Source: Bacillota bacterium (GTDB lineage Bacteria; Bacillota; JAAYKD01). Taken from it: DNA of 64,000 bases. This document shows, one piece after another, positions 2,047 to 47,719 of the stretch (position 1 is its first letter; every line of letters starts with the position of its first letter). The stretch lies in NCBI GenBank assembly GCA_036744005.1, contig DAINOJ010000011.1, positions 4,282 to 68,281 on the forward strand, written 5' to 3'. The translations under genes were made by a program, and so were the position numbers. The notes under the pieces are model-generated. The model ran no database searches. It worked only from the letters and a program-made list of their open reading frames with translations, and had not been told where the DNA came from.

Positions 2047-2064
2047 TGTAAGGAGCGATACATC

Positions 2065-9111: not shown

Positions 9112-9164
9112 TTGCACGGCTCCCAATCAAAAATAATCACTATGGTTAATTTCGTCTTTCCATA

Positions 9165-9202: not shown

Positions 9203-9211
9203 TGTTGTTTG

Positions 9212-10255: not shown

Positions 10256-10286
10256 TTTTGTCCCTCCAATAAATTTTGTGGCTCAA

Positions 10287-10326
10287 ACAACGTTCTTATT
10301 ATAGCACGCAAGCTAACTTTTGGCAA
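10287..10326 (-). promoter_or_regulatory. sigma-A-like promoter for the FMN-binding lipoprotein gene
   Basis: Minus-strand TTGCCA - 17 nt - TATAAT, about 35 nt upstream of the start codon. Confidence 0.45.
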
Positions 10327-10473
10327 GTTATTTGTAAATTTTTTCTCGAAGTAAAATATCGTTTTTCTGGTAACTCTTGGCTAAAATACTACTATTTTCA
10401 CAAAAAGACAACTATTTGTGATTATCGTAACAATGATTTATTGTATTTTTGACATATGTCAGTAAACCACGGG

Positions 10474-16949: not shown

Positions 16950-19361
16950 TTAGTTGTTGTTATTTCCTTTGCAGAAACCTCGAATTTCTTGTATGGTGGC
17001 AAACGTTTGCTCAGTATGACCTTTGTCCACAACAACCAAGGAAGGTGCTGCTTGCACATGGAAGGTTTCGGCCATATCCGGTTTTTCAAAGGCATCAATG
17101 ACTTGATACTGAATGCCTGCTTCATCCAACATACGCTTCGCTGTTTTGCAGTTAGGACAAGTCGGTGTTACGAAAAGGAAGATTCCTTCTAGGGGCTCGA
17201 CTTCACTGACGGTCACCACTTTGGCTTGCATTGTAGGAACTTGAACTGCGCTTTTTCTGAGAACCACATGCTGAATCTCACGATTTGCTTTCTCTTGTTG
17301 GTATTCCACACGATCTTTAAATTCTTGTGCCTTCCCTTCGTTCCAATTCTGTACCGGACGATAGTAACCGGTAATGCGGCTGTAGACTTCTGCATCACTG
17401 CCACATTGCGGACATTGGAAATGTTCTCCGGTGAGGTATCCATGTTCCGGACAAATCGAATAAGTAGGTGACATGGTATAGTAGGGTAAGCTATAATTTT
17501 CGGCAATTTTTCGCACTAGGGTTGCAGTACTCTTCCAATCGGGTAATTTCTCACCCAAGAAAGCATGGAATACCGTGCCCGAGGTATAAAGCGTTTGTAA
17601 ATCATCTTGAATATCGAGAGCAGAAAAAATATCATCCGTAAATCCTACGGGTAAATGGGAGCTGTTGGTATAATAAGGAGTACCATTTTGGTTTGCTGTC
17701 TTGATGCTGGGGTATTTTTCAACATCATGTTTCGCCAAGCGATAGGTTGTCGATTCAGCTGGAGTTGCTTCCAAGTTAAACAAGCAACCATATTGCTCTT
17801 GATACATACTCAGCCGATCGCGCATATAATTCAGGACTTCTTTTGTAAATTCCTGGGTTCGTGGATCGGTCAACCCTTTACCCAACCAATTTGCATTCAA
17901 CCCCACTTCGTTCATACCAATGATGCCAATGGTCGAGAAATGGTTGTCCAAGGTACCCAAATAATGCTTGGTATAGGGATAAAGTCCCGCATGTAATAAT
18001 TGAGTAATGACTTTCCGTTTGGTATCGAGGGACCTCGCCGAAATGTCCATTTGTCGGTTCAATCGAGCAAAGAAATCGGCTTTGTCTGCGGATAAGTAGG
18101 CAATCTTCGGCATATTGATGGTGACAACTCCAATAGACCCTGTACTCTCTCCGCTTCCAAAGAACCCACCGGCTTTTTTACGCAGTTCCCGTAAATCCAG
18201 ACGTAACCGGCAACACATGGAACGGACATCATTGGGTTCCATATCGCTGTTGATGTAATTAGAAAAATACGGAGTGCCATATTTTGCCGTCATTTCAAAG
18301 AGTAAACGATTGTTTTCGGTATCGCTCCAGTCAAAATCCTTGGTAATCGAGTACGTTGGAATGGGATATTGGAAACCTCTACCATCGGCATCCCCGCCCA
18401 GCATGATTTTGATGAAGGCTCGATTGATGATGTCCATTTCGGCTTGACAATCACCGTAGGTAAAGTCCATTTCTTTTCCCCCGACAATGGCAGGCTGATT
18501 GGCCAAATCGGGTGGTACAACCCAGTCTAGGGTGATGTTGGAGAAGGGAGCTTGTGTTCCCCAGCGACTGGGGGTGTTCACACCAAAAATAAAGGATTCA
18601 ATGCTCTTCTCTACTTGATCATAGGTGAGATTGTCCACTTTGACAAAGGGTGCTAAATAGGTATCAAACGAAGAAAACGCTTGTGCACCGGCCCATTCGT
18701 TTTGCATGATGCCTAAGAAATTAACCATTTGGTTGCACAATGTGGCCAAATGCTTCGCCGGTGAAGAAGTAATCTTGCCGGAGATTCCTCCCAAGCCTTC
18801 TTGAATGAGCTGACGCAAAGACCAACCGGCACAATACCCGGTTAACATGGATAAATCATGTAAGTGCAAGTCACAGTTTCTATGGGCTTCGGCAATTTCC
18901 GGATCATAGATTTCGCTGAGCCAGTAGTTGGCAGTTATCGCACCGGAGTTACTGAGGATTAAACCACCAACCGAATACGTCACGGTTGAATTTTCTTTGA
19001 CTCGCCAGTCGCTCACTTTTACGTAGCTATCGACAATTTTCTTATAATCCAAGAGGGTGGATTTGACTTGGCGCAAGCTCTCGTGCTGTTTGCGATACAA
19101 AATATAGGCACGTGCTACGTCGGCATAACCTGCTTGAATGAGGATACGCTCCACGCTATCTTGAATGTCTTCCACCTGAATGAATCCATCTTTGATTTTG
19201 GGAGCAAAATCGGCAGTCACTTTTAAGGCCATGAAATCCACTACATTACGGTCGTAAGGGGTTTGCTTTGCTTCAAATGCTTTAATCATAGCATTGGAAA
19301 TCTTCTCCAAGTTAAATTCAACGATTTGTCCGTCGCGCTTCATCACACGGTACATCTTCAT
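16950..19361 (-). CDS. nrdD: anaerobic ribonucleoside-triphosphate reductase (class III, NrdD) with C-terminal thioredoxin-fold extension
   Basis: 803 aa. ATP-cone-like N-terminus, C-terminal Zn ribbon CPEHG...CPQCG and glycyl-radical motif RITGYYRP, then an extra ~75-aa CPNC thioredoxin-like tail (residues ~730-803). Confidence 0.9.
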   Translation of the reverse strand: MKMYRVMKRDGQIVEFNLEKISNAMIKAFEAKQTPYDRNVVDFMALKVTADFAPKIKDGFIQVEDIQDSVERILIQAGYADVARAYILYRKQHESLRQVKSTLLDYKKIVDSYVKVSDWRVKENSTVTYSVGGLILSNSGAITANYWLSEIYDPEIAEAHRNCDLHLHDLSMLTGYCAGWSLRQLIQEGLGGISGKITSSPAKHLATLCNQMVNFLGIMQNEWAGAQAFSSFDTYLAPFVKVDNLTYDQVEKSIESFIFGVNTPSRWGTQAPFSNITLDWVVPPDLANQPAIVGGKEMDFTYGDCQAEMDIINRAFIKIMLGGDADGRGFQYPIPTYSITKDFDWSDTENNRLLFEMTAKYGTPYFSNYINSDMEPNDVRSMCCRLRLDLRELRKKAGGFFGSGESTGSIGVVTINMPKIAYLSADKADFFARLNRQMDISARSLDTKRKVITQLLHAGLYPYTKHYLGTLDNHFSTIGIIGMNEVGLNANWLGKGLTDPRTQEFTKEVLNYMRDRLSMYQEQYGCLFNLEATPAESTTYRLAKHDVEKYPSIKTANQNGTPYYTNSSHLPVGFTDDIFSALDIQDDLQTLYTSGTVFHAFLGEKLPDWKSTATLVRKIAENYSLPYYTMSPTYSICPEHGYLTGEHFQCPQCGSDAEVYSRITGYYRPVQNWNEGKAQEFKDRVEYQQEKANREIQHVVLRKSAVQVPTMQAKVVTVSEVEPLEGIFLFVTPTCPNCKTAKRMLDEAGIQYQVIDAFEKPDMAETFHVQAAPSLVVVDKGHTEQTFATIQEIRGFCKGNNNN

Positions 19362-24915: not shown

Positions 24916-25758
24916 TTATTCAGACAAAGGTTGAATGGCGATGGCAGCATCCATCATCTCTTCAAAATCCTCAACCGTTAATTCTGATAGGACACCATTG
25001 ATGACTTCCAATAACTGTGTATTGCCTTTTTTAACAGAAATTCCTAAATTGACTTCTTCTTCCGATACTTCGAAATCATCTTCTGTTCCGGTAAAATCGA
25101 GAATGACTAAGTTTTCGTTCACCTGAACCGCAGCCATGGCTGTGGGTAAGTCACAAACGACGTAATCCACCGCCTTGGAGTTCAAAGCGACTAACATGGA
25201 AGGAGCGGATTCCTGTGCGGGTAAAATGTTGGCATTTTCGATTTGCGGCAAACATACATCATACCAGACGGTACCCAACTGCGAAGTAGCGGTTCCCCCG
25301 GCTAAATCGGACAGCCCTTTGGCTTTCGCATAAATGCTGTCTTTATTGGTTAAGGTGACAATGGAAGCATAGTAATAGGGATCTGAAAAATCCACTTGCT
25401 CTAACCGCTCCGCAGTGATGGATTGTCCTGCAATGACAGCATCCACTTCACCCGATTGCAGGGCCGGAATCAAAGAATCCCAATCCAAGCGCACTATTTG
25501 TAATTGGTACCCACCTGCTTCGGCTATGAGTTTAGCCATGGAAACGTCGTAGCCGTTGGCAAAATTTTTGCTGTCAGCGATGGCTACCGCACCATTGGCA
25601 TCATTCTCTTGACTCCAATTGTAAGGAGCATAACCACATTCCATGGCAACGCGCAAAGTTTTCACCTGTGGTTGAGGAGCGGCCGGAGCCGGTGTGTTGC
25701 AAGCAGACAATGTTAGAACAAGGAGAACCATCAGGAGTAATGCAGAAATCTTTTTCAT
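24916..25758 (-). CDS. amino acid ABC transporter substrate-binding lipoprotein
   Basis: Start set at MKKISALLLM (ATG 25758, AAAGGATGA ribosome-binding site). Lipobox LTLSAC. SBP_bac_3-like fold. Confidence 0.85.
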   Translation of the reverse strand: MKKISALLLMVLLVLTLSACNTPAPAAPQPQVKTLRVAMECGYAPYNWSQENDANGAVAIADSKNFANGYDVSMAKLIAEAGGYQLQIVRLDWDSLIPALQSGEVDAVIAGQSITAERLEQVDFSDPYYYASIVTLTNKDSIYAKAKGLSDLAGGTATSQLGTVWYDVCLPQIENANILPAQESAPSMLVALNSKAVDYVVCDLPTAMAAVQVNENLVILDFTGTEDDFEVSEEEVNLGISVKKGNTQLLEVINGVLSELTVEDFEEMMDAAIAIQPLSE

Positions 25759-25759
25759 G

Positions 25760-26070
25760 GGAATCATCCTTTCATTTTCACAAAAAAACAAGAGCTTTTC
25801 ACGAATGAAAAGCTCCATAAAATCGTACGAGGACACGGTACGATCATCATGATAGCTCTCCACCTTAGTGACAGTCCACAGCATATTCTGCTGAAGCCCA
25901 GCTTTACTCGTTCAGGCAAACAGGAGTAAAACTTCGGCGAAGCTCCCCTTTCATCCACACCAATGCACTGTTGTTGTGTCGGATTACTCTTGGTCTTCGC
26001 TCCTCTATCTCATGTATTTTGTTGTATTAGGTGTTACGATAGCACAATAATACTACCCTGTCAAGGTTCT
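25760..26070 (-). promoter_or_regulatory. long structured 5' leader with terminator/attenuator upstream of the amino-acid ABC operon (class unassigned)
   Basis: Minus-strand TTGACA-17-TATCGT promoter near 26060. About 250-nt leader ending in GAGCTTTTCA-ttcg-TGAAAAGCTC hairpin plus a U7 run (25786-25815) immediately before the ribosome-binding site. Confidence 0.35.
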
Positions 26071-26826: not shown

Positions 26827-26869
26827 AAAACGGTTCTCGCGATATCTACTTTCGCTGAGAACCGTTTTT
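26827..26869. terminator. bidirectional intrinsic terminator
   Basis: AACGGTTCTC ... GAGAACCGTT stem flanked by A4 and T5 runs, between convergent genes. Confidence 0.55.
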
Positions 26870-27737
26870 ATATTTCTCTGAGTTCCTGCTGGGAGAGAAC
26901 CGCCATTTCCTTGCCTGTAAATGGATGCACAAGTGCTAAAGAATAGGATTGAAGTTGCTGTGTAGTCCTCCCTCGCGACCTGGAAAAGGCAATGGATTCT
27001 GGTGTCCCATATTGTTCATCTCCCACAATGGGGCACCCCAGGGCAACACAGTGTAATCTCAGTTGATGCGTTCTACCGGTTATGGCTAGTAACGAAACCA
27101 ATGAGCCCTTCTCTGTTTCTCTTAAAACCTTAAAGTCTGTTTGCGCCGCTTGCCCACTGGAATGTATTCTTCGTAAAATCGGATTGCCTTCCACCAAAGC
27201 AATGGGTAAAGCAATGGTTCCTTCTTTCACCTTTGGATGCCCATATACCCATGCTCGGTAGGTTTTCACGACCTGGTGCTCTTGCATTTGCTGCATGATT
27301 TTTGCATGTGTGATCGCATCTTTTGCGACAATAACCACTCCAAAGGTATCTCTGTCCAGCCGGTTCACCATGTGAATTCCGGCTTGAATGTGTTGCTGCA
27401 AGTAATACCCTGCCACATAGTTCGCAACTGTGCCTTCGATTCTGGCCTTGGTAGGGTGCATCGTTATTCCGCTGGGTTTATCGATGAAGAGGAGCTTGTC
27501 ATCTTCATATAAAATACGTAAAACCCCATTTTCGGGTAGTATATTGTGATCTTGTTCCAGCTCATGCAACGTGATGACGTCATTACAAAGAATAGGTTGG
27601 TAAGCGGTTGCTACTTCCCCGTTTACGGTCACTGCTTTGGATTTCATGAGTTTCTGCGTCGCACGGGCTGAAAGCGACAGCTCTTCTCGCAAAAAAGAAA
27701 TCAATTTCCCAGAGCGCTGTGCGGTAATGGTTTTCAA
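26868..27737 (-). CDS. RluA-family 23S rRNA/tRNA pseudouridine synthase (S4 + PseudoU_synth_2)
   Basis: HQLRLHCVALGCPIVGDEQYG C-terminal motif and catalytic-Asp region (GVVIVAKD). Confidence 0.8.
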   Translation of the reverse strand: MKTITAQRSGKLISFLREELSLSARATQKLMKSKAVTVNGEVATAYQPILCNDVITLHELEQDHNILPENGVLRILYEDDKLLFIDKPSGITMHPTKARIEGTVANYVAGYYLQQHIQAGIHMVNRLDRDTFGVVIVAKDAITHAKIMQQMQEHQVVKTYRAWVYGHPKVKEGTIALPIALVEGNPILRRIHSSGQAAQTDFKVLRETEKGSLVSLLAITGRTHQLRLHCVALGCPIVGDEQYGTPESIAFSRSRGRTTQQLQSYSLALVHPFTGKEMAVLSQQELREI

Positions 27738-28900
27738 CGAACCTCCACCTCACTTTTGCTCATTGGTTTCTGCTTATTGGCTTTATTCAAATACAATAAC
27801 TCATCCACTCGTTTTTGAAACTCATTGACTGTCCAATTTTGCTTCGGATCGTATTGAATGCTGCCAATGCTAAAAGTAAGAATTTGGTCGAGCCCCGATT
27901 CTCTGTTATATGCCTCCATGGCCCTCCGCAATTGGAGTATCACTTCACTCAAGTCGGTCTGGTTTTCGATATTCACAATAACATAAAATTCATCCCCACC
28001 ATAGCGGGCTAAATGCGAGTTCTTGCCTAATGATCTTTGCAAAACTTTTGTAATTTCCTGTAATACACGGTCTCCAGTATCGTGACCATAGGTATCATTG
28101 ACGTTTTTGAAGTTATCTAAATCCAGCAGAATGACCGAGAATACACTTCTCTCACTACTCGCTGTAATTTTCATTTTGATATAGTAATCGAGCCATTTAC
28201 GGTTATAAATACCTGTTAAATAATCGGTGTATATACTTTGGTTTTGAATGCTTAACAGTATAATAAGCAATGAAATCACAATGGCATTGAGCATGAGAGA
28301 GTAGCCATAGAATAGGTATTGCAATAGTATACTTGCCAAAGGAGGTACGGCAAAAAAAAGCAAGGAGTAATAATGCCTAGAATCGAGTAAACGACGATTC
28401 TTAATAATCATCGCAAAGGCAAAGAGCACTTGCCCTAATGAATACATCAGTGAGATGATATAGAACGGTCCTCTATGATAAATATTGGCACCATCTATAT
28501 GATAAAACCAACCGGTTTTTAAGTTGATGACCACCAGGATGAAATTGGACATGCAAAATAATACCAGAGGACGCACGATTTTCTGTGTCGCTTTTTCATC
28601 ATGGAAAATATTCAGATGCGCATACAGGATCCAAATACTGGCGATAGTGGGTTGAATGGCAAACATCACGAAGTTACCTAGATGATTGAAGACGGAATAA
28701 TAGGTTCCTGGGTTTCCATCAAAACGAGCAATGGTATCAAGAGTAAGCAAAACGATGGTCACACGCATGAGGTTCATGAACAAGGAGAACTGCAGGGTGC
28801 GTTTCTCAGGAGAACGATTGGTATAGTAAAGCATGACGATAAGCAAAAGAACAGAGTACATATTGATGACTCCGTTTGCTAGTAAAGTCATGGCTCTCAT
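27734..28900 (-). CDS. membrane-anchored GGDEF diguanylate cyclase (N-terminal multi-TM sensor)
   Basis: About 7 N-terminal TMs, then a GGDEF domain with intact RYGGDEF. Confidence 0.8.
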   Translation of the reverse strand: MRAMTLLANGVINMYSVLLLIVMLYYTNRSPEKRTLQFSLFMNLMRVTIVLLTLDTIARFDGNPGTYYSVFNHLGNFVMFAIQPTIASIWILYAHLNIFHDEKATQKIVRPLVLFCMSNFILVVINLKTGWFYHIDGANIYHRGPFYIISLMYSLGQVLFAFAMIIKNRRLLDSRHYYSLLFFAVPPLASILLQYLFYGYSLMLNAIVISLLIILLSIQNQSIYTDYLTGIYNRKWLDYYIKMKITASSERSVFSVILLDLDNFKNVNDTYGHDTGDRVLQEITKVLQRSLGKNSHLARYGGDEFYVIVNIENQTDLSEVILQLRRAMEAYNRESGLDQILTFSIGSIQYDPKQNWTVNEFQKRVDELLYLNKANKQKPMSKSEVEVR

Positions 28901-28978
28901 TCCTCTCGTCTAAACGATATTGTATTATAACAAAATTTAATGTCCACGACAAGGAGCACAACACAGAAACGCAACTTT

Positions 28979-30310
28979 TTATCTGATTCGTCGATACAAA
29001 TATCCTTTGGCTTCGAGTCCCTTTTTATATTGAAGGAGTGTATCCAATAGTGGGACTAGCAGGGCTGCCACAAATCCTCCGGAAAACCCATTGTTGTACA
29101 AATTCATTCCGGCATGCAGAACCCCAATATTGACAACCAGAAAAACATGAATCATACCTGCTACAACGCCTGCTATGGGACCATAGACCTGGGCAATGGG
29201 TGCTAAGGTGGTTCCAAACAAAGCAGCAAGCACTATACCGACAGAAGATACTTCGTGCAAACTGAACATACCCGCCAAAAATACCCCAAGCATCACAGGC
29301 AGAACATTTCTAACATGCTTTCCGTATGCTCCAAAGCCCGTCATAGTAAATATGCCACCCAAAACCGGTCCGTTTAGTTCCCCCTGCACCAATCTGACGT
29401 AAGCCAACCCCGTCACTCCCATGATTGCCATGTTCATCAACGTCATGGGCAATCCATATGAGAACACATAATCCCTGTTCTCAAGGTTGCGATCCCTGAG
29501 TAACTCAAGAAAACCAGAGAACCGAAACCCGTTCCAACCCCATCCCAATAAAAAGAAAGCGACAAAGAGTAACGCCAGTACAAACGTTAAGGGAGCATTG
29601 TTACCCGAGGAAACCAAGGAAACCGGAGCAATGTAGATACCAAATCCGCGCAAAATAGCAATCATAAACATTCCGATTAACCCAGCCGCAAAACCAATAT
29701 TGTATAAGCTCAATCCTTTATGAAAACTTTTCACGTGTTCTGCCAGAGGAGGTAAAATAAGACCGATGAATACCCCCGCTAATAATCCTAAGGAGTGTCC
29801 CAGCCAAGGAACCAACCCCAAATTAAACGAGATTTCGGATACCACCGGACCTAATGCCGTACCAAACATGGCTGGTAACACATACTTGGTAAACTCCACC
29901 TTCATCAGCAGAGTGAACAAATACACTCCCAATATAATGGGTACGGAGTTATATAGATTCTTGCCAAATAACGAGAAGCCGGCAATCGTAAAAACCGCCG
30001 CTAAATGTCCACCATTCACCGGTACTTTGAGCAACCACAAAATGACAATGCTTTTTAAAACCATGAACCCGGCATTCCAGAAGGCAGCACCTATGTTGGC
30101 TATGTAAAAATAATCGGTCAACAGATTCGCCGGAGAGGTAAGAATGATAGTACTTCCTTGCACAATCTCGCTAATCGGATTGAAAAACAGCCCGGACAAG
30201 AAAAAGAAAACGGCAAGTAAGAGTAAGACGACATAACCTTTGCTACGAATACGAACCACCCTTTCCAACGACTTGCTGTCTTCGTTTATCTTCTGTATTC
30301 TTCTTTGCAA
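28979..30310 (-). CDS. large polytopic membrane protein of unknown function
   Basis: 443 aa with more than 10 predicted TMs. 25-nt overlap with the upstream GGDEF gene. Confidence 0.55.
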   Translation of the reverse strand: MQRRIQKINEDSKSLERVVRIRSKGYVVLLLLAVFFFLSGLFFNPISEIVQGSTIILTSPANLLTDYFYIANIGAAFWNAGFMVLKSIVILWLLKVPVNGGHLAAVFTIAGFSLFGKNLYNSVPIILGVYLFTLLMKVEFTKYVLPAMFGTALGPVVSEISFNLGLVPWLGHSLGLLAGVFIGLILPPLAEHVKSFHKGLSLYNIGFAAGLIGMFMIAILRGFGIYIAPVSLVSSGNNAPLTFVLALLFVAFFLLGWGWNGFRFSGFLELLRDRNLENRDYVFSYGLPMTLMNMAIMGVTGLAYVRLVQGELNGPVLGGIFTMTGFGAYGKHVRNVLPVMLGVFLAGMFSLHEVSSVGIVLAALFGTTLAPIAQVYGPIAGVVAGMIHVFLVVNIGVLHAGMNLYNNGFSGGFVAALLVPLLDTLLQYKKGLEAKGYLYRRIR

Positions 30311-31338
30311 AACACACTAAACGTGTTCTTCCCTTTTTGTTTGGCTTGGTACATCGCATAATCGGCATATTCAATCAGGTCATATATGTTATCCGTATCC
30401 TTTTGGTATATCGCCATACCCACACTGCAGCGAAAGGTTTCTGTGACTCCGTTTAAGGAGATGGCATCGTACAATACAGTCTCTTGGATGGCAAACCAAA
30501 CTTTCAGCAAATCTTGCTCTAAAACCCGAGTATAACCGTGTAAGTATAAACCAAACTCATCCCCTGCAATTCGTATACAGATCTTTTCTTCAAAAGGCAA
30601 GTGGAGGAGTCGTCGGGCAAATTCCTTTAGGTAGTTGTCTCCGGCTTGATGTCCATAGGTATCGTTGATTCTCTTGAAATTGTCTAAATCCAAGAAAACG
30701 AAGATCCCATGCGCTTTCGGTTTTGAACGGATGATGTAGTCGATCTCTTCTCGATACTGATATCTGCTAACCAATCCGGTGAGAGCATCCTTGACCAATC
30801 GATTATTAAGGTCTAAGTTCAGTTGTTTGAGCTGAGAGTTGGCCTTCTTGAGTTGGCGTTGCATATTGGTCATCTCGTTATTTAGTTTTTGTATTTGTTC
30901 GAATTGCTCGCGAATCATTTTGTTGTCTTCATACACAATTTGATCATTCGTCATGCTGATGACTTTCATAAAGCGATGAATGAATTCCATCATATCTGAG
31001 AAGACACCATCTTCAGAATTTACAGGAATTTCGTATCCAAACACCAAAACCGTGTTGCCCTTTGCAATGAAACATAGAGAAATCTCTACAGGGACTCCAG
31101 TCAGTTGAAAGTCATAATTACAGGTTATGGCTTCACGAGTCTTAAGTGTTTGATGTAGAGAATCCAATAACCTTTCCGCATCCTGAGGATTGAATAATTC
31201 GGTCAATTTTTTTTGATATGGCGAGAACAGGAAGATCGGTTGATTCCAGTACGTATGAAGAATCGTAAATTCTTCATCACATTGAATCAGAAACGAAGTA
31301 TTCACTTTCATTTGACCGCTCTCCTTTCTAAGCATCAT
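30286..31338 (-). CDS. cytoplasmic sensor-GGDEF protein (N-terminal PAS-like domain, coiled coil, GGDEF domain with AGDEF variant)
   Basis: GGDEF-domain core (LDLDNFKRINDTYGHQAGD). The signature motif reads RIAGDEF. Confidence 0.75.
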   Translation of the reverse strand: MMLRKESGQMKVNTSFLIQCDEEFTILHTYWNQPIFLFSPYQKKLTELFNPQDAERLLDSLHQTLKTREAITCNYDFQLTGVPVEISLCFIAKGNTVLVFGYEIPVNSEDGVFSDMMEFIHRFMKVISMTNDQIVYEDNKMIREQFEQIQKLNNEMTNMQRQLKKANSQLKQLNLDLNNRLVKDALTGLVSRYQYREEIDYIIRSKPKAHGIFVFLDLDNFKRINDTYGHQAGDNYLKEFARRLLHLPFEEKICIRIAGDEFGLYLHGYTRVLEQDLLKVWFAIQETVLYDAISLNGVTETFRCSVGMAIYQKDTDNIYDLIEYADYAMYQAKQKGKNTFSVFCKEEYRR

Positions 31339-32409
31339 CTAAATTGTTTTCTCCGCCCACTTTGCCAATTCGGACGCCGTCTCTGCGTAAAAATCAACAG
31401 GCCATTTCTTCCATAACTGATTGGTATGCCGAAAGGCTTGACCCCCCACCGCGATTCGCAAGTGTGGATGTTGTTTTTTGATTTCCACTACAACCTGCTC
31501 GCAAATCGATAGGTAGGGTGGCATCGTGACCGACAACGCCACTAAATCTGGTTTGTTTTCTTCTATGGCGTTCAGGATTGCTTTTATAGGTAATGCTGCT
31601 CCTAAATAAACCGTATCCCACCCTTGAAACTCAAAAATATCGGAAAGCATTCGGATGCCCAATTCGTGCAATTCACTACCAATGGCACACGATAATAAGG
31701 TCTTGTTTTTTCTCGGGCTTTCAAAGATTTCATCGTAAAAACTGGATAAAACACTTTGAGTAACGGAGGTAGCATAATGCTCTCGGTCTAACGTAATATA
31801 ATTACTATGCCATAGATGACCAATCTCATACATCACTTTTGTCAGGATTTCTTCATAAACTTGCATCATACTAACGCCTTGTTCTTTTGCTTGACGTATG
31901 ACTTGTTGCGCTTTTTTTGTTTGACCAGTTAGCAAGGCATCTAAGTATGCTTTCCGTATATCAAAGAACTCTCCTTCAATAAAGCTCGAGCTCAAAGGTA
32001 CTTCCGTTATGGCTTTCTGAGTGACTTTTATGGCCCTGCTCAAAAAATCTTGTATCAAAACAAGTTCCTCTGGTTTTAAGTAACCACTGGCTTTTTGGTT
32101 GAATACTTCTGCCAGTATTCGATAATGATCATTCATTTGTTGCATTATACGATTTCGGTCTATATCTCTCATCACGTTACATAGAAGTTCATAGATCCAT
32201 TTTGCATATCCTTCAAAAATCTGAGCATCATTAAAATAAACGGCGGTCATCAGAAAACTGATGTTATAGACCACATCATCATACATGAGTTTCTTTCGAC
32301 GCTCATCCATTTCTTCGTTCAACTTCGGATCGCGCTTGAACTGCTCTTCGAAAACAAGTTGAGCAATCTCAATCCATTTTGGATCATTGTAATTCATGAG
32401 CAAACTCAT
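31339..32409 (-). CDS. cobalamin (B12)-binding domain protein, CarH/LitR-type light-sensing module with N-terminal helical domain, no DNA-binding domain
   Basis: W200-x9-E210-H211 (WHSNYITLDREH) in a helical bundle. Rossmann B12-binding domain with (E)xHxxG (ELHELG, residues 246-251) and a GG motif (VGGQAF). The stop is immediately adjacent to the downstream GGDEF start. Confidence 0.65.
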   Translation of the reverse strand: MSLLMNYNDPKWIEIAQLVFEEQFKRDPKLNEEMDERRKKLMYDDVVYNISFLMTAVYFNDAQIFEGYAKWIYELLCNVMRDIDRNRIMQQMNDHYRILAEVFNQKASGYLKPEELVLIQDFLSRAIKVTQKAITEVPLSSSFIEGEFFDIRKAYLDALLTGQTKKAQQVIRQAKEQGVSMMQVYEEILTKVMYEIGHLWHSNYITLDREHYATSVTQSVLSSFYDEIFESPRKNKTLLSCAIGSELHELGIRMLSDIFEFQGWDTVYLGAALPIKAILNAIEENKPDLVALSVTMPPYLSICEQVVVEIKKQHPHLRIAVGGQAFRHTNQLWKKWPVDFYAETASELAKWAEKTI

Positions 32410-32420
32410 GTGCCTTCCCC

Positions 32421-33260
32421 CTAATACTCAATTTTCTGAATCAAAAATCTCCCTGTCTTCAAATCGGTAAAGGCCTTTTGTAGCTCTTCTTTTGTATTCA
32501 TTACGATGGGTCCACCCCAAGATATGGGTTCATTCAATGCTTCGGAACTGACAAACAGAACCTGAGAGTAGCGGTCCGCTGCTTGTATCACAATTTCATC
32601 TCCTGCAGAGACGTGAACGGCGGTTTTTTCAGAAACAAAAACTCCCCCCACGGTGACATCACCCAAAAGGGTAAACAATAAAACCGATTTGTCTTTCGGT
32701 GTCTGAATGACTTTGGAAACTCCGGGGTTTAAGTGGATATCATAGTAATCTAAGGGGAGATACAAGCTTTGGTAGCCCTGAATCCCTTCATACGTTCCGG
32801 CAAGAAGACGAATTTTTCCACCCTCGAAGAGGATTTCCTGGATTTCGTCATTCTTAATACTATGATACGCCGGATTGCACATTTTGTCTTTGGCCGGTAA
32901 ATTCAACCACAGCTGCACACCTAACATGCGTTCCGATGCGGGGAGCTTTTCTTCGTGCAATATGCCAGATCCTGCCGTCATCCATTGTACCTCACCATCG
33001 GATATGGTATCTTCGTTGCCCAAACTATCTTTATGCGTCATCTTACCCCGGTAGATATAACTCACCGTTTCGATTCCGCGATGTGGATGCATAGGGAAAC
33101 CGGCAATATAATCGTCTGGATTCACACTATCGAAGGAGTCTAGCATGAGAATGGGATCAAAATCCTTCACTGTGTTATGTCCAAGCACCCTTACTAAACT
33201 CACACCCGCTCCGTCGGAAGTGCGAAATCCGCGAACTTGCTTTTCTACTTGTCGTTGCAT
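32421..33260 (-). CDS. pirin-family cupin protein
   Basis: Bicupin with the HPHRG metal-site motif (FPMHPHRGIETV). Confidence 0.8.
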   Translation of the reverse strand: MQRQVEKQVRGFRTSDGAGVSLVRVLGHNTVKDFDPILMLDSFDSVNPDDYIAGFPMHPHRGIETVSYIYRGKMTHKDSLGNEDTISDGEVQWMTAGSGILHEEKLPASERMLGVQLWLNLPAKDKMCNPAYHSIKNDEIQEILFEGGKIRLLAGTYEGIQGYQSLYLPLDYYDIHLNPGVSKVIQTPKDKSVLLFTLLGDVTVGGVFVSEKTAVHVSAGDEIVIQAADRYSQVLFVSSEALNEPISWGGPIVMNTKEELQKAFTDLKTGRFLIQKIEY

Positions 33261-33274
33261 CGTGCTACACCTCC

Positions 33275-34087
33275 TTAGTTTTCTTTCTTCGCCATGTTCC
33301 CAGCAATGTCAGGGATATATTTTAGTTTCTGCATGGGTGGCCGAGTATATCCTTCGTCTTTTTGCTTTTCCGGCAAAATAAACTCAGCATGTGGGATATC
33401 TTCATAAGGGATTTGACTCAAAATATGGGAGATCACGTTAATGCGTGCATGCCTCTTGTTATCGGAGTCCACGACATACCATGGGGATTGCTCGGTATCG
33501 GTATATTGGAACATCACGTCTTTGGCACGGGAGTAATCTACCCAGCGAGCTCGTGCTTCTTTGTCCATTTCGCTGAGCTTCCATCGTTTGGCATCATCGT
33601 GGATTCGGTCTTGAAAGCGCTTCTCTTGTTCTTCATCGCTCACAGAAAACCAGTATTTGATCAGGATGATACCGGAGCGAATCAGGAGTTCCTCAAACCG
33701 GGGCACTGCTTTCAGGAAATCCCAATACTCTTCTTCGCTACAAAACCCCATGACTCTTTCCACACCGGCTCGGTTGTACCAACTTCGGTCAAATAAGACC
33801 ATTTCTCCGGCAGAGGGTAAATGGGCAGCATAGCGTTGAAAATACCATTGAGTTCGTTCTTTGTCGGTCGGTTTGGGGAGAGCGGCAATTCGGCATGTTC
33901 TTGGGTTCAAGTTTTTGACAATACGTTTGATTGCCCCACCTTTTCCGGCCGCATCGCGACCTTCGAATAAGATCACCACACGAAGGCCTTTGTGAACAAT
34001 CCAGTCTTGTAAATTGACCAATTCATTTTGCAGTTCCTCTAATGTATTCTTGTACGCTTTTTTTGAAAGTTTCGCCACTTCATACAT
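33275..34087 (-). CDS. polyphosphate kinase 2 (PPK2) family nucleotide phosphotransferase
   Basis: Walker A-like FEGRDAAGKGG, a lid, and the WYFQRY motif typical of PPK2. Confidence 0.85.
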   Translation of the reverse strand: MYEVAKLSKKAYKNTLEELQNELVNLQDWIVHKGLRVVILFEGRDAAGKGGAIKRIVKNLNPRTCRIAALPKPTDKERTQWYFQRYAAHLPSAGEMVLFDRSWYNRAGVERVMGFCSEEEYWDFLKAVPRFEELLIRSGIILIKYWFSVSDEEQEKRFQDRIHDDAKRWKLSEMDKEARARWVDYSRAKDVMFQYTDTEQSPWYVVDSDNKRHARINVISHILSQIPYEDIPHAEFILPEKQKDEGYTRPPMQKLKYIPDIAGNMAKKEN

Positions 34088-34102
34088 CTCCCCTTTCCGA
34101 TT

Positions 34103-34597
34103 CTATTTTGATTCTTTGTTAGCTCGCACGAATTCTATCGCTTCTTTCCCGGTCATATGCTCAATATCCAGAGCAATAAGGTAGGTTTGTTGGCAGTCCA
34201 ACGCTGCTTTCTCTTTGGCTTCTAAAGGTTGATCTGCAGAATATTTCTCCACTAGGGCACGTAATGCTTCTACGTGTTCTTCCCCTTCTGCAATTCTGGC
34301 TCTGCCAAAGGCAATCACGCTTCGAAAATAGGACGTATACTCCGCACTGACAATGGTATCTTCATCAATGACAGCAAACGAAACTTTGCTGTTCTTTTGT
34401 ATGGCATCGATTTTGTGTCCTTGCTTGGCAGAATGAAAGTAGATTCTACCCATATGATATACAAAACTCATGGGTACCGCATACGGATAATCCATATCCC
34501 CTATGCACGCCAAAACCCCATTGGTTGCTCGACATAACACCTTCTCTGTGTCCATGTGGTTTAATAATTGCTTGTTTCTTCTCATTTCACGAAACAT
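34103..34597 (-). CDS. pyridoxamine 5'-phosphate oxidase-like FMN-binding split-barrel protein
   Basis: Start at ATG 34597 (TAAGGAGG ribosome-binding site). PNPOx-like fold signature in the N-terminal half. Confidence 0.65.
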   Translation of the reverse strand: MFREMRRNKQLLNHMDTEKVLCRATNGVLACIGDMDYPYAVPMSFVYHMGRIYFHSAKQGHKIDAIQKNSKVSFAVIDEDTIVSAEYTSYFRSVIAFGRARIAEGEEHVEALRALVEKYSADQPLEAKEKAALDCQQTYLIALDIEHMTGKEAIEFVRANKESK

Positions 34598-34608
34598 GGA
34601 AATCCTCC

Positions 34609-35019
34609 TTAGTGATGGTTGCCGGTCATATAGCACCATGTGGCGATCTCTGCGATGAGCTCAAACGGCACCGGTTCCGAATACTGAAATTGAATGGCCC
34701 CTTTACTGGTTTTATAAGGTTTGAGTTGTTCGGCAAATTGCTCAATCGCTTCCGAGCCCGGATACAACCCCATATGATTCTTGAAGGCAGCAAAATGAAT
34801 GATGTTTTGTTTTTTTCGGAAGGTAGGCATGCTCCATGATATTTTTTCCTCAGCACCCGGCAATACAGAACGGATGGTCTCGCGAACCTTTTGCAACAAC
34901 GGTCGAATCGTATCGGGTTGAGCCAAGATATATGCCTCCACGGTTTTAGGGGATTCTTCGCAAAAATGGTCTTGATTGTTATGTTTGAATTCTCTTTTAC
35001 ACTTTGGGCATTGCCACAT
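34609..35019 (-). CDS. DUF1801 (YdhG/YdeI-like) domain protein with N-terminal CxxC...C zinc-ribbon-like start
   Basis: 136 aa. MWQCPKCKREF..HFC N-terminus followed by a DUF1801-like region. Confidence 0.5.
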   Translation of the reverse strand: MWQCPKCKREFKHNNQDHFCEESPKTVEAYILAQPDTIRPLLQKVRETIRSVLPGAEEKISWSMPTFRKKQNIIHFAAFKNHMGLYPGSEAIEQFAEQLKPYKTSKGAIQFQYSEPVPFELIAEIATWCYMTGNHH

Positions 35020-35035
35020 GGGATACCCTCCTTTA

Positions 35036-35587
35036 CTAGATTTTCAATACACCTCTGAAACCTCGGGAAGAATAATACGATTCCGCACCGTTGTGATACA
35101 CGAAAACCGTATCATACCGACGGTCACAGAAGAGTGCACCGCCCATCTCTCGTATCTTCTGAGGTGTTTGTACCCAGCTGGACGTTTTCGTGTCAAAGGG
35201 TTCTATCTCTTGCAATCCACGATAATGTGTTTCGTTCAAAAGCTCAACACCCATTTCTGCTGCCATATCGACCACATTCCCCACTGGCTTATTCTCTTTC
35301 CGTGCATCTAAAGCGATGCGATCGTAGCAGAGACTTCTTCTTCCTTTTGGGGATTCCGCAGAACAATCACAGTAAATGAGTTCATCGTTCTGTTGGTCAT
35401 AAAAGACCACATCGGGTTCTCCGCCCGTCTCTTCCATGCGTTGGAGTGTTCTAAGGTTGTTCTCTCTTCTTTCAATACGAGCCAGTACAAAGGACCAAGA
35501 TAGTTCCGGATGACGGTGCTTGTTCTTTTCAAATCGGTTTTTCAAGATTTCGAGCAGAGTTCCATAGTCTTGTAGCGACATGTCCAT
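35036..35587 (-). CDS. hypothetical protein (DUF4256-like)
   Basis: Start at ATG 35587 (AAAGGAGAG ribosome-binding site). Assignment is recollection-based. Confidence 0.45.
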   Translation of the reverse strand: MDMSLQDYGTLLEILKNRFEKNKHRHPELSWSFVLARIERRENNLRTLQRMEETGGEPDVVFYDQQNDELIYCDCSAESPKGRRSLCYDRIALDARKENKPVGNVVDMAAEMGVELLNETHYRGLQEIEPFDTKTSSWVQTPQKIREMGGALFCDRRYDTVFVYHNGAESYYSSRGFRGVLKI

Positions 35588-35594
35588 CTCTCCT

Positions 35595-36725
35595 TTAAAA
35601 ATCAAACTTCAGCATGGGTGGTTGATAGCGTATCGGTAAGGTTTCTTCTTCTAGAAAATGGAAATTCTCATCGTTTAAAACGGGCAAAAAGGAAGAAAAG
35701 GGGAAACTCTCAAACTCACAAGCATAATCGCTCGCACCAAACCACTTGCCTTCTTTGTTGCTCAAGTTTAACCCTCTCGCAAATTTTGTGTCGTTCGAGC
35801 AGTCGTGAACCACGATACCCCATTGTTCACGCCCAGCCACAGCCATGAGTTGTAAGCTGAGCTCCCGGCTCCAAATAGGGGAAATATAACCATGCCTGGA
35901 AATATACATATTCTCTCCCGAGTAGTTATCGATGTTATTCTCGTTCAAATGCAATTCTGCGCAATTCATAAAATCGAGTTGAGTTTGGAGAATGAGTTCT
36001 TTCTTCGCTAAGAAGGCTTGGAAAAACTCAGGCGTCATCGGCGTCTCTATGCCAACAAACGGAATATATTTTTTTGCCGTTTTCATGTTCTCAATCACGA
36101 AATCAGCAGTATTGGAAGCGCCTAAGTTAAAGCGAAGTTCATTCAGCCCCGCTTCCGCCAACGCTTTCAAATTTTCTTCGGTGGCTAGAGTGCCATTGGT
36201 ATACATATGCTGATGAATCCCGGCATTCTTAAAGTGACGAATCACCGGGTAATATTTTTCGATTTCCATGAATGGTTCTAAATAAACATAGGAAATGCCT
36301 GTCGGTTTTTGGTGTATCGACAACAGCAATTCTAAATCTCGCTCATAGAATTTGCTGCCACCAATCTCCCATAGACCTTCACCTACAGGCGACATCGCAT
36401 CGATTTCACCATAATTATAACAAAATTTGCAATTCAAATTGCAAGTATGTGTTTTACGTACAGCGCTAAGACCACTTCCCAAAAGACACGACTTACAGCC
36501 CTGGGGGAAGTGATCGTCTGGTCCAACATACAGCGTTCTATTATGTAAGGACTTTAACCCGGGTATCTGCTTCTTGAGTTTCTCCTGCCGGTCGAAAACG
36601 GTGGCTTCGATTTGAGCAAAGGTAGCAAAGATGATTTCTTCGTGTAATGGGGTAATTTCCTCTTCTTCGCTCATTTGCGCAAAGTGGTCGAACCAGATTA
36701 AGGCATCTTGTTTTGAGATTTTCAC
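35595..36725 (-). CDS. radical SAM enzyme of unknown specificity
   Basis: CNLNCKFCYN (Cx3Cx2C) cluster motif at about residue 95. No SPASM or twitch cysteines at the C-terminus. Confidence 0.75.
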   Translation of the reverse strand: MKISKQDALIWFDHFAQMSEEEEITPLHEEIIFATFAQIEATVFDRQEKLKKQIPGLKSLHNRTLYVGPDDHFPQGCKSCLLGSGLSAVRKTHTCNLNCKFCYNYGEIDAMSPVGEGLWEIGGSKFYERDLELLLSIHQKPTGISYVYLEPFMEIEKYYPVIRHFKNAGIHQHMYTNGTLATEENLKALAEAGLNELRFNLGASNTADFVIENMKTAKKYIPFVGIETPMTPEFFQAFLAKKELILQTQLDFMNCAELHLNENNIDNYSGENMYISRHGYISPIWSRELSLQLMAVAGREQWGIVVHDCSNDTKFARGLNLSNKEGKWFGASDYACEFESFPFSSFLPVLNDENFHFLEEETLPIRYQPPMLKFDF

Positions 36726-36747
36726 AGTGTCTCCTTTACGGGCTTGC

Positions 36748-37662
36748 TTATGGATTGCTCATGGGTGGGACTTCATACCAAGTGGGAATACGACTTTCAC
36801 ATTGCCCAAACCAGTTCAACACGTCTTGAGCCTGATTTTTCATAACCTGTACTTCTTTTTCACCAAAGGGGATGGCCCATGGTATGGACGAAATGGTATT
36901 GGCAGCGATATAAAACAACAAATAAGAGAAAAAGATTTCTGGCGGCTCTCCTTGAAAGTACCCATGGATTTGCCCTGTCGCAAAAGCGGGACTTACCGTT
37001 GCACTCCAAACAATGCGATTAAACTCTTCCCAAGGATCTCCGTAATCGGGTCGGTTGAAGTCGATGACATAAATATTTTGCTGTTCAGAGACAATCAGGT
37101 TACCCACATGATAATCGCCATGTTGTGCAGATTGCGGTCTGTTTTGTAACAGATGTCGTTGGGTTTGCAGGTAATGAATTAGTTTCTCGTCCCCTTGAAA
37201 ACGCAACCCACAGTCTAAATAACGTTGGATCCGTGTATGGATTTTACGATTGAATCGAACTTCCCAATCTTCCTGTTCCGGTGGAGCGGGTATGGTATGA
37301 ATTTCCCGTAGAATTTGTCCGGCTTGAACACCTAACTGGTATTGCTGCACCGCAGGATACTTGGGCAACACACTTTCGACATCTTCACCCGGGGACCATG
37401 ACAATAGGGTATAGACAAATTCATCATGGCAACATCGGCCAAAATCAATCGGCTGGGACATGCGAATACCCAATTGCGAGATCGTACTCATAAACCGGTA
37501 CTCCGCTTGTTTCTTTTCGAGTTCGTCTTTCGCAGCCAGACGTAACAACAATGGCTGATTTTGATACGTCTCTATGTAATATTTACGGTCGCTGGACCAA
37601 CCTTTTAGTAGTGGTTCAACCACCCTGAAATGAGGGAATTGTTCCTTTATGCGGGAAATCAT
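36748..37662 (-). CDS. phosphotransferase-family (APH/ChoK-like) small-molecule kinase
   Basis: Brenner motif HGDYHVGN and IDFNRPDYGD (DFG-like). Confidence 0.75.
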   Translation of the reverse strand: MISRIKEQFPHFRVVEPLLKGWSSDRKYYIETYQNQPLLLRLAAKDELEKKQAEYRFMSTISQLGIRMSQPIDFGRCCHDEFVYTLLSWSPGEDVESVLPKYPAVQQYQLGVQAGQILREIHTIPAPPEQEDWEVRFNRKIHTRIQRYLDCGLRFQGDEKLIHYLQTQRHLLQNRPQSAQHGDYHVGNLIVSEQQNIYVIDFNRPDYGDPWEEFNRIVWSATVSPAFATGQIHGYFQGEPPEIFFSYLLFYIAANTISSIPWAIPFGEKEVQVMKNQAQDVLNWFGQCESRIPTWYEVPPMSNP

Positions 37663-37964
37663 ATTCGTTCGTCCTCAAACTCTGGGAACACGGGCTGCTC
37701 TGTTTCCATCCAATATTTACTTCCGTTGATTTCACGACCCAAAAAACGCAAATCATACAGTTCGCGTCGCAACAAGGCAGCATCTTCAAAGGTATGCCAT
37801 CGGTTCAAAAGCTCGTTGACCTCTTTTTCTGTATATTCTTTCATGGGTTCAAATTTAGAAGCCAGATAATACAGTGAAGCGTCTTTCAATTTTCTTTTGG
37901 TGGGGTATGCTTTTAATCTCATTTCATCGTCCAAGAAATTTCTTAATATGGTTTCTACTTTCAT
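37659..37964 (-). CDS. DUF2087 domain protein
   Basis: 101 aa. The pattern ...RLKAYP.KRK....LYYLA.KF..........EVN..L.......D...LRR.L.D..FL.R...G..Y matches a recalled DUF2087 profile. 4-nt overlap with the downstream kinase gene. Confidence 0.5.
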   Translation of the reverse strand: MKVETILRNFLDDEMRLKAYPTKRKLKDASLYYLASKFEPMKEYTEKEVNELLNRWHTFEDAALLRRELYDLRFLGREINGSKYWMETEQPVFPEFEDERI

Positions 37965-37973
37965 GATGTTCTC

Positions 37974-38918
37974 CTAACTTCTTTGTATTAATGGGAGGAA
38001 GATGGTTTTACACCACCGTTCCACGGCAGATGGGTACCATTCCTCCATAAAAAACCGATCATGTTGACAGCTTATAAAAAGTAATACAGACAAAGCCAAA
38101 AAGCTATCTCGATGGAGTGTCGGCACTTCAAAGCCACATTCGTCGAAATACCCCAAACTGACCGCGTCTTGCTGTTCCTTACTCTGATAATTCGAAGCGA
38201 TCATACCACATTCCTGTGCGCGATATCCATAACCCGATAAAGAAAAATCGATGGGGGCGAGTCCCTCTTTGGTTTGAATCAGATTCCCGAACCCCATATC
38301 GGCATGCAATAATGCCACTGAATCGGGTTCTTGGTCCAGCTTCGCCATCAGTGAGGAGATGAATTCCAGTGTGTCTTTACAAATTTTCGTTTGCTCAAGG
38401 GAAATATGACTCCTTGAGAAAGCTACATCCATTTCGTTCCTCATCCTGCCTAACGTGTTGCTGTTGTATGTTAGGCGCGCTCCGGTGAATCCTTGGGTCG
38501 CAAGATGGATTTTGGCGGCTAACTGACCAATTTCATAAGCAGACGTAATCGCTGTTTCTTTATTGAGGGGTTCGCCTTCTAACCAATGTAAAAGGCAGGC
38601 AGGGATTTCGTTATCTAAAATGGCAACAGACTCCCCGGTTTTGGTTTGAACCGGCCTTTGTACAGGAAATAAAGCGGCTTTCTCTATATGAGACAGTAAG
38701 TCCATTTCACTTTGCAATAGAGTGATCGGATCCATCGGTTCAAAGATTTTTAGCTCAAAGCCCTCACGTGGCAGACGGATTCTTAGGGCATATACTTGCT
38801 TATCCTCCACCACCTTGCATGTAATATTTTCATTATGTCTTAAAAAAGTCGTCTTCGGATTGGTTAATGGGTACCTTTGTAAGGCCTCTTCTATGTATGT
38901 TTCCACTCTTTGAGTCAT
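37974..38918 (-). CDS. phosphotransferase-family (APH/homoserine-kinase-II-like) kinase
   Basis: LHADMGFGN (HxDxxxxN) and IDFSLSGYGY motifs. Confidence 0.7.
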   Translation of the reverse strand: MTQRVETYIEEALQRYPLTNPKTTFLRHNENITCKVVEDKQVYALRIRLPREGFELKIFEPMDPITLLQSEMDLLSHIEKAALFPVQRPVQTKTGESVAILDNEIPACLLHWLEGEPLNKETAITSAYEIGQLAAKIHLATQGFTGARLTYNSNTLGRMRNEMDVAFSRSHISLEQTKICKDTLEFISSLMAKLDQEPDSVALLHADMGFGNLIQTKEGLAPIDFSLSGYGYRAQECGMIASNYQSKEQQDAVSLGYFDECGFEVPTLHRDSFLALSVLLFISCQHDRFFMEEWYPSAVERWCKTIFLPLIQRS

Positions 38919-44751: not shown

Positions 44752-45252
44752 CTATATCGTTGTCAAATGCTTCTCGTATACTATTTTATGATCCCCATTA
44801 TCATAATAATCTTTGAAAATAGCGACTTCACGATACCCGTGTTTGAAATAAAATTTGCGAGCGGCAAGGTACGGTTCTCTTGATGATGTTTCAATATAAA
44901 TTTTTTCGCCTTTTTGACGCAGAATTTGATTTTCTGTCAAATGGATTAATTGGCTCCCTATTTCTCTTCGGGAATACTTTGGATCCACAACAATCCAATA
45001 TAAATCATAGCGATTTCTAGTGCATGGAATTTCCCCATAACAAGTATAACCAACGATTTGATTTTGCATATAACAAGCCACAAAATGATACCCACTTGTG
45101 CTTGCTCCTTTTAACAAATGTTCTTGTGCCAGCTCTTCTGCGATTTGCACCTCGTGATCATAAAAAGCTCCCGTATCCGAAGTGATACGTCGTATAACCC
45201 GATCATCCCCCGGTTGAAGACCATATTCGAACCGCAATTCCTGATTATTCAT
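44752..45252 (-). CDS. GNAT-family N-acetyltransferase
   Basis: Start at ATG 45252 (GGAGGT ribosome-binding site). GNAT motifs (..IGSQLI.. / ..ARKFYFKHGY). Confidence 0.75.
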   Translation of the reverse strand: MNNQELRFEYGLQPGDDRVIRRITSDTGAFYDHEVQIAEELAQEHLLKGASTSGYHFVACYMQNQIVGYTCYGEIPCTRNRYDLYWIVVDPKYSRREIGSQLIHLTENQILRQKGEKIYIETSSREPYLAARKFYFKHGYREVAIFKDYYDNGDHKIVYEKHLTTI

Positions 45253-47675: not shown

Positions 47676-47719
47676 ATAAAAAGTAGCGAAGAGCCCAAAA
47701 AGGCCTTCGCTATTTTTTT
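47676..47719 (-). terminator. intrinsic terminator after sensor GGDEF/HD-GYP gene
   Basis: AGCGAAGAGCC-caaaaa-GGCCTTCGCT hairpin with flanking A/T runs. Confidence 0.5.

Follow-up and report, generated by a model that had tools for sequence, protein, structure and literature searches.

The stretch analysed here comprises 64,000 nucleotides of a Bacillota bacterium contig (DAINOJ010000011.1, positions 4,282 to 68,281) and is referred to below as the window. Five minus-strand open reading frames (ORFs) lie within positions 26868-32409 of the window, and the first of them in the direction of transcription (31339-32409) encodes a 356-residue cobalamin (B12)-binding protein. This protein, composed of an N-terminal photoglobin and a C-terminal CarH-type cobalamin-binding domain, is a standalone, domain-permuted photocobilin, a known kind of photoreceptor and not a new one. 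Its gene is followed by a diguanylate cyclase gene, GGDEF1 (longest ORF 30286-31338; Pfam GGDEF, E = 4.3e-32), a gene for a DUF1576 membrane protein (longest ORF 28979-30310; Pfam DUF1576, E = 2.3e-104), a second diguanylate cyclase gene with a seven-transmembrane (7TM) region, GGDEF2 (longest ORF 27734-28900; Pfam GGDEF, E = 1.1e-37), and a gene for an RluA-family pseudouridine synthase (26868-27737), which scored 221.8 bits against the NCBIfam TIGR00005 cutoff of 192.7. The public gene calls on identical contigs give shorter products for three of these genes, namely 341 residues for the first cyclase (30286-31311, starting at M10), 426 residues for the DUF1576 protein (28979-30259) and 385 residues for the second cyclase (27734-28891). 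The M10 start of GGDEF1 is preceded by an AAAGGAG ribosome-binding site and its orthologues also begin there. With the called starts, the gaps are 27 nt between the B12 gene and the cyclase gene, 26 nt between the cyclase and DUF1576 genes and 87 nt between the DUF1576 gene and GGDEF2, and the RluA gene overlaps the GGDEF2 stop by 4 nt. An earlier interpretation made from the letters alone (the sequence-only reading) had the B12 stop adjoining the cyclase start and the cyclase overlapping the membrane-protein gene; both proved to be artefacts of taking the longest ORF. Its description of five co-directional genes spaced by 0 to 80 nt holds for the shared strand, while the actual gaps range from -4 to 87 nt.

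The proposal that 31339-32409 encodes a cobalamin-binding protein was borne out by profile searches, which identified the four-helix-bundle cap B12-binding_2 at residues 152-222 (31744-31956, minus strand; Pfam E = 4.6e-14) and the Rossmann-fold B12-binding domain at residues 243-345 (31375-31683, minus strand; Pfam E = 1.8e-19). The cap contains G197-xx-W200(-H201)-x8-E210-H211, and the Rossmann domain contains E246-x-H248-xx-G251, G270-xxx-P274 and the glycine pair GG322-323, with H248 as the predicted lower axial His. Conservation was examined in an alignment of 40 orthologues at 48-68% identity and in a second one of 12 relatives chosen from among the most divergent (38-64% identity). G197, W200, E210, H211, E246, H248, G251, G270 and G322-G323 are invariant in both alignments, and P274 is at least 90% conserved across them. 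The motifs pointed out from the letters alone (W200, E210-H211, E246-x-H248-xx-G251 and G322-G323) are thus present at the positions given for them. The light-response signature GxxW / EH / G..H / GxxxP defined previously (PMC11796333) is complete in the 356-residue protein. The residue beside W200, H201, is usually His (at least 90% conserved). We take H201 to correspond to H132 of CarH, the upper ligand of the light state. The sequence-only reading had also noted the absence of a MerR or helix-turn-helix (HTH) domain, in agreement with which no HTH match was obtained in Pfam or NCBIfam.

A sequence search of the PDB placed the photocobilin structures 8J2W/8J2X (SasPcob, E = 1.7e-22) and 8J2Y (AbPcob, E = 6e-17) at the top, followed by a Chloracidobacterium MerR-family domain (8JBS), with methionine synthase, corrinoid proteins and CarH far lower. 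The AlphaFold2 model built from the 40-sequence alignment had a predicted local distance difference test score (pLDDT) of 92.5 and a predicted template modelling score (pTM) of 0.88. Foldseek aligned only the cobalamin-binding half of this model, about 205 residues, to solved structures because the domain order is reversed. The pTM suggests a confident inter-domain arrangement, and the permuted order precludes superposing the model on 8J2W for the packing of the globin against the corrin edge. By sequence and fold together, the closest solved proteins are photocobilins and CarH-type domains. In every sequence and predicted-fold feature that can be checked computationally, the protein agrees with a photocobilin.

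The N-terminal region of about 170 residues had been described as helical. It is a recognisable phycobiliprotein-like globin, the photoglobin domain of Schneider et al. (PMC8717448), covering residues ~1-145 (31975-32409, minus strand). The PDB search gave a weak second match between N-terminal residues 33-77 and the C-terminal globin of both photocobilins, and a Pfam search with the isolated N-terminal 148 residues returned nothing meaningful. A profile of the N-terminal domain searched against 1.84 billion representative sequences retrieved 173 relatives, most of them with the same architecture. One relative of the same architecture (P0316) scores above the Pfam Phycobilisome cutoff in residues 14-129, a tandem globin (P0319) exceeds that cutoff too, and a third relative has the opposite order, with the B12 domains before the globin (P0387); these three provide transitive sequence support for the identity of the domain. 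The numbering used in the SasPcob paper equals SEQRES + 6 (its lower axial His108 corresponds to H102 of the chain that was aligned), and with this six-residue offset SasPcob Asp270 aligns with D45 and Trp296 with W71. Across the 40 orthologues and 12 divergent relatives, W71 never varies, and the conservation of D45 is 90% or higher. Three residues before D45, where some globins have a bilin-linking Cys, there is a Met (M42), and therefore any bilin would be bound non-covalently, as in SasPcob. By analogy, the globin probably holds a non-covalently bound linear tetrapyrrole.

For the protein encoded directly downstream, the AlphaFold2 model (pLDDT 85.9) places a five-stranded PAS-like domain in residues 15-103 and a single long helix in 110-180, followed by the GGDEF domain (ORF numbering). 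The N-terminus has the fold expected of PAS, a five-stranded antiparallel sheet with flanking helices, so the PAS part of the earlier PAS-GGDEF assignment stands, whereas the active-site motif reads AGDEF and not GGDEF. All 38 orthologues have A/SGDEF at this site and none has GGDEF. D217, N225, D234, R256 and the GDEF residues are invariant among the partner orthologues, and we take these four numbered residues to be the metal- and guanine-binding catalytic residues. The partner lacks an RxxD inhibitory site (I-site). An AGDEF cyclase, VCA0965, is catalytically active (PMC3974145); with this precedent and the conserved residues, the partner cyclase is predicted to be competent.

The gene neighbourhood was surveyed in relatives of the B12 gene, keeping one genome per species, which gave 80 loci with a best match of 65% identity; the species of the window is thus not itself represented among them. 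They span Clostridia, Tissierellia, Erysipelotrichia, Bacilli, Izemoplasmatales, Sphaerochaeta and other spirochaetes, Synergistaceae and a fusobacterial metagenome-assembled genome (MAG). Carriers of the pair with complete genomes include Proteocatella sphenisci, Pelagirhabdus alkalitolerans, Blautia schinkii and Peloplasma aerotolerans. All 77 loci that extend past the B12 gene carry a GGDEF1 orthologue directly after it on the same strand (tblastn), usually starting within ~50 nt of the B12 stop or overlapping it; in one of them (L016) GGDEF1 is only a remnant. The similarity covers the N-terminal domain of the cyclase at 36-52% identity in most loci. In Izemoplasmatales-type loci the tblastn match begins only at about residue 130, and the ORFs there are full length. 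The pairing of the two genes is therefore near-obligatory across four phyla. In many loci the genes flanking the pair on one or both sides lie on the opposite strand, which indicates that the photocobilin-cyclase pair is an autonomous unit.

In some relatives the output attached to this unit differs. A Christensenellaceae MAG (L055) has a PAS-like/PAS/HisKA/HATPase kinase gene (9074-10621) between the B12 gene and the usual cyclase gene. In three gut or rumen Clostridia loci (L069:9068-10843, L074:9032-10801 and L076:9065-10813) the partner is a PAS-like/degenerate GGDEF/EAL protein, the carriers being Clostridium sp. AM58-1XD, Blautia schinkii and a gut MAG. The PAS-plus-helix module directly after the B12 gene stays constant while the output varies, which suggests that the small PAS domain is what receives the photocobilin signal.

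The pair is followed by a third gene in 26 of the 80 loci, in several phyla, encoding a protein of ~175 residues with six transmembrane segments and no significant Pfam match (for example L004:10182-10712, L018:10123-10641, L051:10071-10607 and L058:10106-10657). This protein may be a third component of the cassette, and its gene is absent from the window. The DUF1576 protein was compared with it as a possible duplicated form and no similarity was found.

The remaining genes of the region are not part of this conserved arrangement. By tblastn, none of DUF1576, the 7TM region of GGDEF2, RluA, PPK2 and pirin is conserved in the neighbourhood across the 80 loci. There, DUF1576 had no match; the GGDEF2 matches cover only the GGDEF domain of other genes; RluA had a single match at an unrelated position; and pirin had two matches only, distant and on the opposite strand. 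Since neither DUF1576, the 7TM region of GGDEF2 nor RluA adjoins the B12 gene in any of these loci, conservation does not support the earlier idea of a five-gene operon. The individual gene identities fared better. The multi-transmembrane protein is the DUF1576 protein, with about 10 hydrophobic segments by hydropathy and two internal repeats; the second cyclase has seven hydrophobic segments and an intact RYGGDEF motif, together with no I-site and a weak HisKA_7TM similarity (E = 2.5e-4); and the RluA assignment was confirmed by its score above the NCBIfam cutoff. The DUF1576 gene, which lies between the two diguanylate cyclase genes, is a lineage-specific neighbour outside the conserved cassette. 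Its product, like the second cyclase and RluA, is a neighbour peculiar to this genome and does not belong to the system. The 87-nt gap upstream of GGDEF2 contains a ribosome-binding site and a promoter-like site, TTGTCG-17-TATAAT with an upstream TG (28919-28952, minus strand; 10/12 matches in a consensus scan, a consensus match only), and GGDEF2 thus probably has its own promoter. Directly 3' of the RluA stop there is a hairpin with a U-rich tract (26827-26868, minus strand; minimum free energy -21.9 kcal/mol, z -5.9, none of 200 shuffles as stable), likely a terminator that acts bidirectionally with the convergent acetate-transporter gene.

Contrary to the sequence-only reading, the B12 gene does not visibly head an operon. 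A pirin gene ends 11 nt before it, and at least eight more co-directional genes precede pirin, including those for PPK2, PNPOx-like, DUF1801, DUF4256, radical-SAM and APH-type kinase proteins, with gaps of 11-22 nt or overlaps. The whole stretch 32421-38918 (minus strand) is a long, tight string of functionally unrelated small genes that leads straight up to the B12 gene; its APH-type kinases number two or three, and DUF2087 also belongs to it. Nearly all genes of the 64-kb window lie on the minus strand, and because of this a shared direction is weak evidence for an operon.

Several other features of the window were recorded. Downstream of the region, the next transcription unit begins with a lysine riboswitch (25845-26015, minus strand; 91 bits) and a terminator-like hairpin (25791-25816), upstream of a solute-binding-protein gene (24916-25884). 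A NiCo (nickel/cobalt) riboswitch (1940-2024, plus strand) lies directly upstream of a cation-diffusion-facilitator efflux gene (2014-3234), and no cobalamin riboswitch was found in the window. A 957-residue protein encoded at 47718-50591 (minus strand) combines periplasmic solute-binding, GAF, PAS, GGDEF and HD-GYP-type HD domains and is a third cyclic di-GMP (c-di-GMP) enzyme within 20 kb. Two genes next to each other (45245-46291 and 46615-47604, minus strand) code for D-Ala-D-Ala-ligase-C-type ATP-grasp proteins. An anaerobic ribonucleoside-triphosphate reductase, NrdD, with a glutaredoxin-like C-terminal extension is encoded at 16950-19361 (minus strand), which fits an organism that lives anaerobically or facultatively. 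A class II deoxyribodipyrimidine photolyase is encoded at 50671-51990 (minus strand; TIGR00591 phr2, 563 bits against a cutoff of 550), which indicates that the organism meets light.

Taken together, the factual core of the sequence-only reading stands, far beyond chance. Its central claim, a CarH-type adenosylcobalamin (AdoCbl) light sensor that lacks a DNA-binding domain and gates c-di-GMP synthesis, is well supported by the photocobilin structures, by precedent and by the near-obligatory cyclase partner. Its remark that the arrangement was uncharacterised, on the other hand, has been overtaken by the literature: photoglobin-B12 proteins were catalogued in 2021 from computational predictions (PMC8717448) and characterised as photocobilins in 2024 (Zhang et al., PMC10979010). 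On the sequence, the structural models and analogy with these proteins, we consider it probable that the standalone photocobilin, with its AdoCbl-binding domain placed after a bilin-type globin, forms a two-protein light-signalling unit with the PAS/coiled-coil/AGDEF cyclase. The folds, the conservation of the chromophore-binding and catalytic residues and the near-obligatory pairing are observed here, and from analogy with AbDPcob and SasPcob we infer binding of AdoCbl and bilin, photochemistry, physical interaction and the direction of the effect. After the scheme of Zhang et al. (PMC10979010), the AdoCbl-loaded photocobilin would bind the PAS domain of its partner in the dark and restrain the cyclase. 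Green light would break the Co-C bond, and red light could do so too via the bilin, if one is bound. The photocobilin would then change its conformation or oligomeric state. Relayed through the long signalling helix, this change would release or re-orient the cyclase and allow the two catalytic domains to pair productively, and c-di-GMP would rise.

A number of points weigh against such a light-signalling pair. Chromophore binding, photochemistry and interaction are all carried over to this subfamily by analogy. The globin bears a weak sequence resemblance to solved photocobilins, the top PDB match of a 25-sequence profile being 8J2Y at E = 0.053, and the equivalence of D45 and W71 to the SasPcob residues rests on short, weak alignments (E = 0.05-17) together with the fold. 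Gln replaces H201 in some members, and SasPcob likewise has Gln at this position. The pair itself sits, in the window, within a closely packed run of co-directional genes. Many of the hosts appear, from record titles, to be anaerobes from digesters, gut, rumen, sediments and groundwater. Light is scarce in such habitats, and the usual source of biliverdin, the O2-dependent heme oxygenase, is unlikely in anaerobes. Neither a heme oxygenase gene nor a B12 gene was seen among the ~40 window proteins that were scanned, which do not represent a full annotation of the window. The upstream radical-SAM gene was considered as a ChuW-like anaerobic heme-degrading source of bilin and set aside, as it gave a generic Radical_SAM match only and no supportive family match.

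It is doubtful, though the strongest of the alternatives, that the globin binds a ligand other than biliverdin, such as a linear tetrapyrrole made anaerobically, or binds none and shields the corrin edge, leaving a sensor of green light only, of oxygen or of redox state. Most hosts are anaerobes in which the canonical heme oxygenase cannot work, M42 leaves no Cys for covalent attachment, and AbPcob binds biliverdin poorly and still functions (PMC10979010). Against this, D45 and W71, which align with key biliverdin contacts of SasPcob, are conserved family-wide and argue for a tetrapyrrole-like ligand. In anaerobic habitats that are permanently dark, the protein could also report the availability of corrinoid, with an apo/AdoCbl switch of the cyclase tying biofilm formation and motility to B12 cross-feeding and the photochemistry being incidental. 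AdoCbl binding alone lowers the cyclase activity of AbDPcob relative to the apo protein (PMC10979010), and many hosts appear from record titles to be gut, rumen, digester, sediment or subsurface anaerobes; however, the adenosyl-pocket and light-response residues W200, E210 and H211 are invariant even in gut members, a sensor of B12 alone would have little obvious use for a bilin-type globin in which D45 and W71 are conserved, and this genome encodes a photolyase. We therefore regard availability sensing as the main role as unlikely, and the corrinoid-availability and light roles are not mutually exclusive. A broader version, to which we give the same low weight, is that the photocobilins of this subfamily are not biliverdin/light sensors at all and instead report corrinoid, oxygen or redox state, or bind an anaerobically made linear tetrapyrrole, and signal through a dedicated PAS receiver plugged into cyclase, phosphodiesterase or histidine-kinase outputs. 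If true, these proteins would make up a B12 sensory system that switches partners, unlike the fused photoreceptors investigated to date.

Two further explanations concern the partners of the B12 protein. That all five genes form one functional operon integrating light, a membrane signal and RNA modification would fit their shared direction, the gaps of -4 to 87 nt and the lack of a terminator-like site in the intergenic gaps before the post-RluA hairpin, the few scan matches lying inside coding sequence. This appears improbable, as none of the 80 related loci has any of the last three genes (for GGDEF2, its 7TM region) in the neighbourhood, GGDEF2 is preceded by a promoter-like site, and the genes upstream are packed equally tightly in a window where almost every gene shares the strand. 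We give hardly any credence to a methyl-transfer corrinoid protein of the MtbC/MtaC kind next to an unrelated cyclase. JGI labels several orthologues "methanogenic corrinoid protein MtbC1" and NCBIfam gave weak matches to pyl_corrinoid, MtgC and MtaC, yet all these models score far below cutoff (TIGR02370, 52.9 against 215.3 bits), no methyltransferase is a conserved neighbour in the 80 loci whereas the signalling protein is, and the Wx9EH signature and the globin domain are photoreceptor features. The two-protein light-signalling unit remains the reading that we favour.

What gives the locus a moderate interest is that photocobilin and cyclase form a native pair of two proteins, which occurs chiefly in anaerobes. 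Photocobilins were characterised from one fused and one orphan standalone protein, and the evidence for regulation in trans comes only from adding photocobilins separately to the AbDGC domain excised from the fused protein (PMC10979010). Here, and in the 77 relatives of this locus, a sensor and its cognate PAS-cyclase occur naturally as two proteins, in which the physiological interaction surface, stoichiometry and direction of regulation could be addressed. That some lineages connect the receiver module to a phosphodiesterase, or have a histidine kinase alongside it, suggests a docking domain that is portable and could be useful in optogenetic design. The presence of the pair in gut, rumen, digester and subsurface anaerobes, even in the wall-less Izemoplasmatales, raises the question of what the B12/bilin module senses there.

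Among known systems, the photoglobin family is one of the closest. The proteins described in PMC8717448 share with the one studied here a six-helix phycocyanin-related globin whose helix 3 bears a conserved Asp, with a hydrophobic residue ~31 positions further on (D49...L80 in that family, D45...L76 in the present protein), the coupling to the domains B12-binding_2 and B12-binding, and the occurrence of GGDEF proteins in the same operons. Both fused and standalone photoglobin-B12 proteins are on record with diguanylate cyclases among their neighbours, and both domain orders and the association with diguanylate cyclases were noted when photocobilins were characterised (PMC10979010). Proteocatella sphenisci, which is in the species list of the PMC8717448 alignment, carries a 61%-identical orthologue (L020); this subfamily and its invariant PAS-A/SGDEF partner were not singled out in that study.

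The standalone photocobilin SasPcob of Saccharothrix syringae (8J2W/8J2X; PMC10979010) has the globin last, whereas here it comes first, and the two share only ~25-28% identity over the cobalamin-binding domain. The gene neighbours of SasPcob are STAS, SpoIIE and PP2C in contrast to the dedicated PAS-cyclase partner here, and its hosts are actinobacteria while the present subfamily occurs mostly in anaerobic Bacillota, Spirochaetota and others. AbDPcob of an Acidimicrobiaceae bacterium (8J2Y) is a single polypeptide in the order cyclase, cobalamin-binding domain, globin, instead of two genes as here, where the cyclase carries its own PAS domain and long helix. At the position of the bilin-binding Asp, AbPcob carries His (PMC10979010), as our alignment also shows; the Asp is kept here (D45). 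In the dark, AdoCbl-bound AbDPcob has poor cyclase activity, and light raises its turnover more than 10-fold. In vitro, isolated photocobilins acting in trans alter both the activity and the oligomeric state of the isolated cyclase (PMC10979010).

The MerR-family AdoCbl repressors CarH and LitR share the cobalamin-binding fold, the W-H...EH residues and the lower axial His with the present protein. They have a MerR HTH domain, whereas here there is none, an additional globin domain is present and the output is a partner enzyme rather than DNA binding. Consistent with this, the NCBIfam CarH model gave 47.7 bits against a cutoff of 400 and matched the cobalamin-binding part only. In the bacteriophytochrome-cyclase 5LLW and the LOV-cyclase 8C05, a bilin- or flavin-binding photosensor is fused to the cyclase; here the photosensor is a separate B12 protein, and the PAS domain of the partner shows no sign of chromophore binding. 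What this locus and its relatives add to these systems is the near-obligatory PAS-A/SGDEF partner, a receiver module that stays the same while outputs are exchanged, and a distribution centred on anaerobes.

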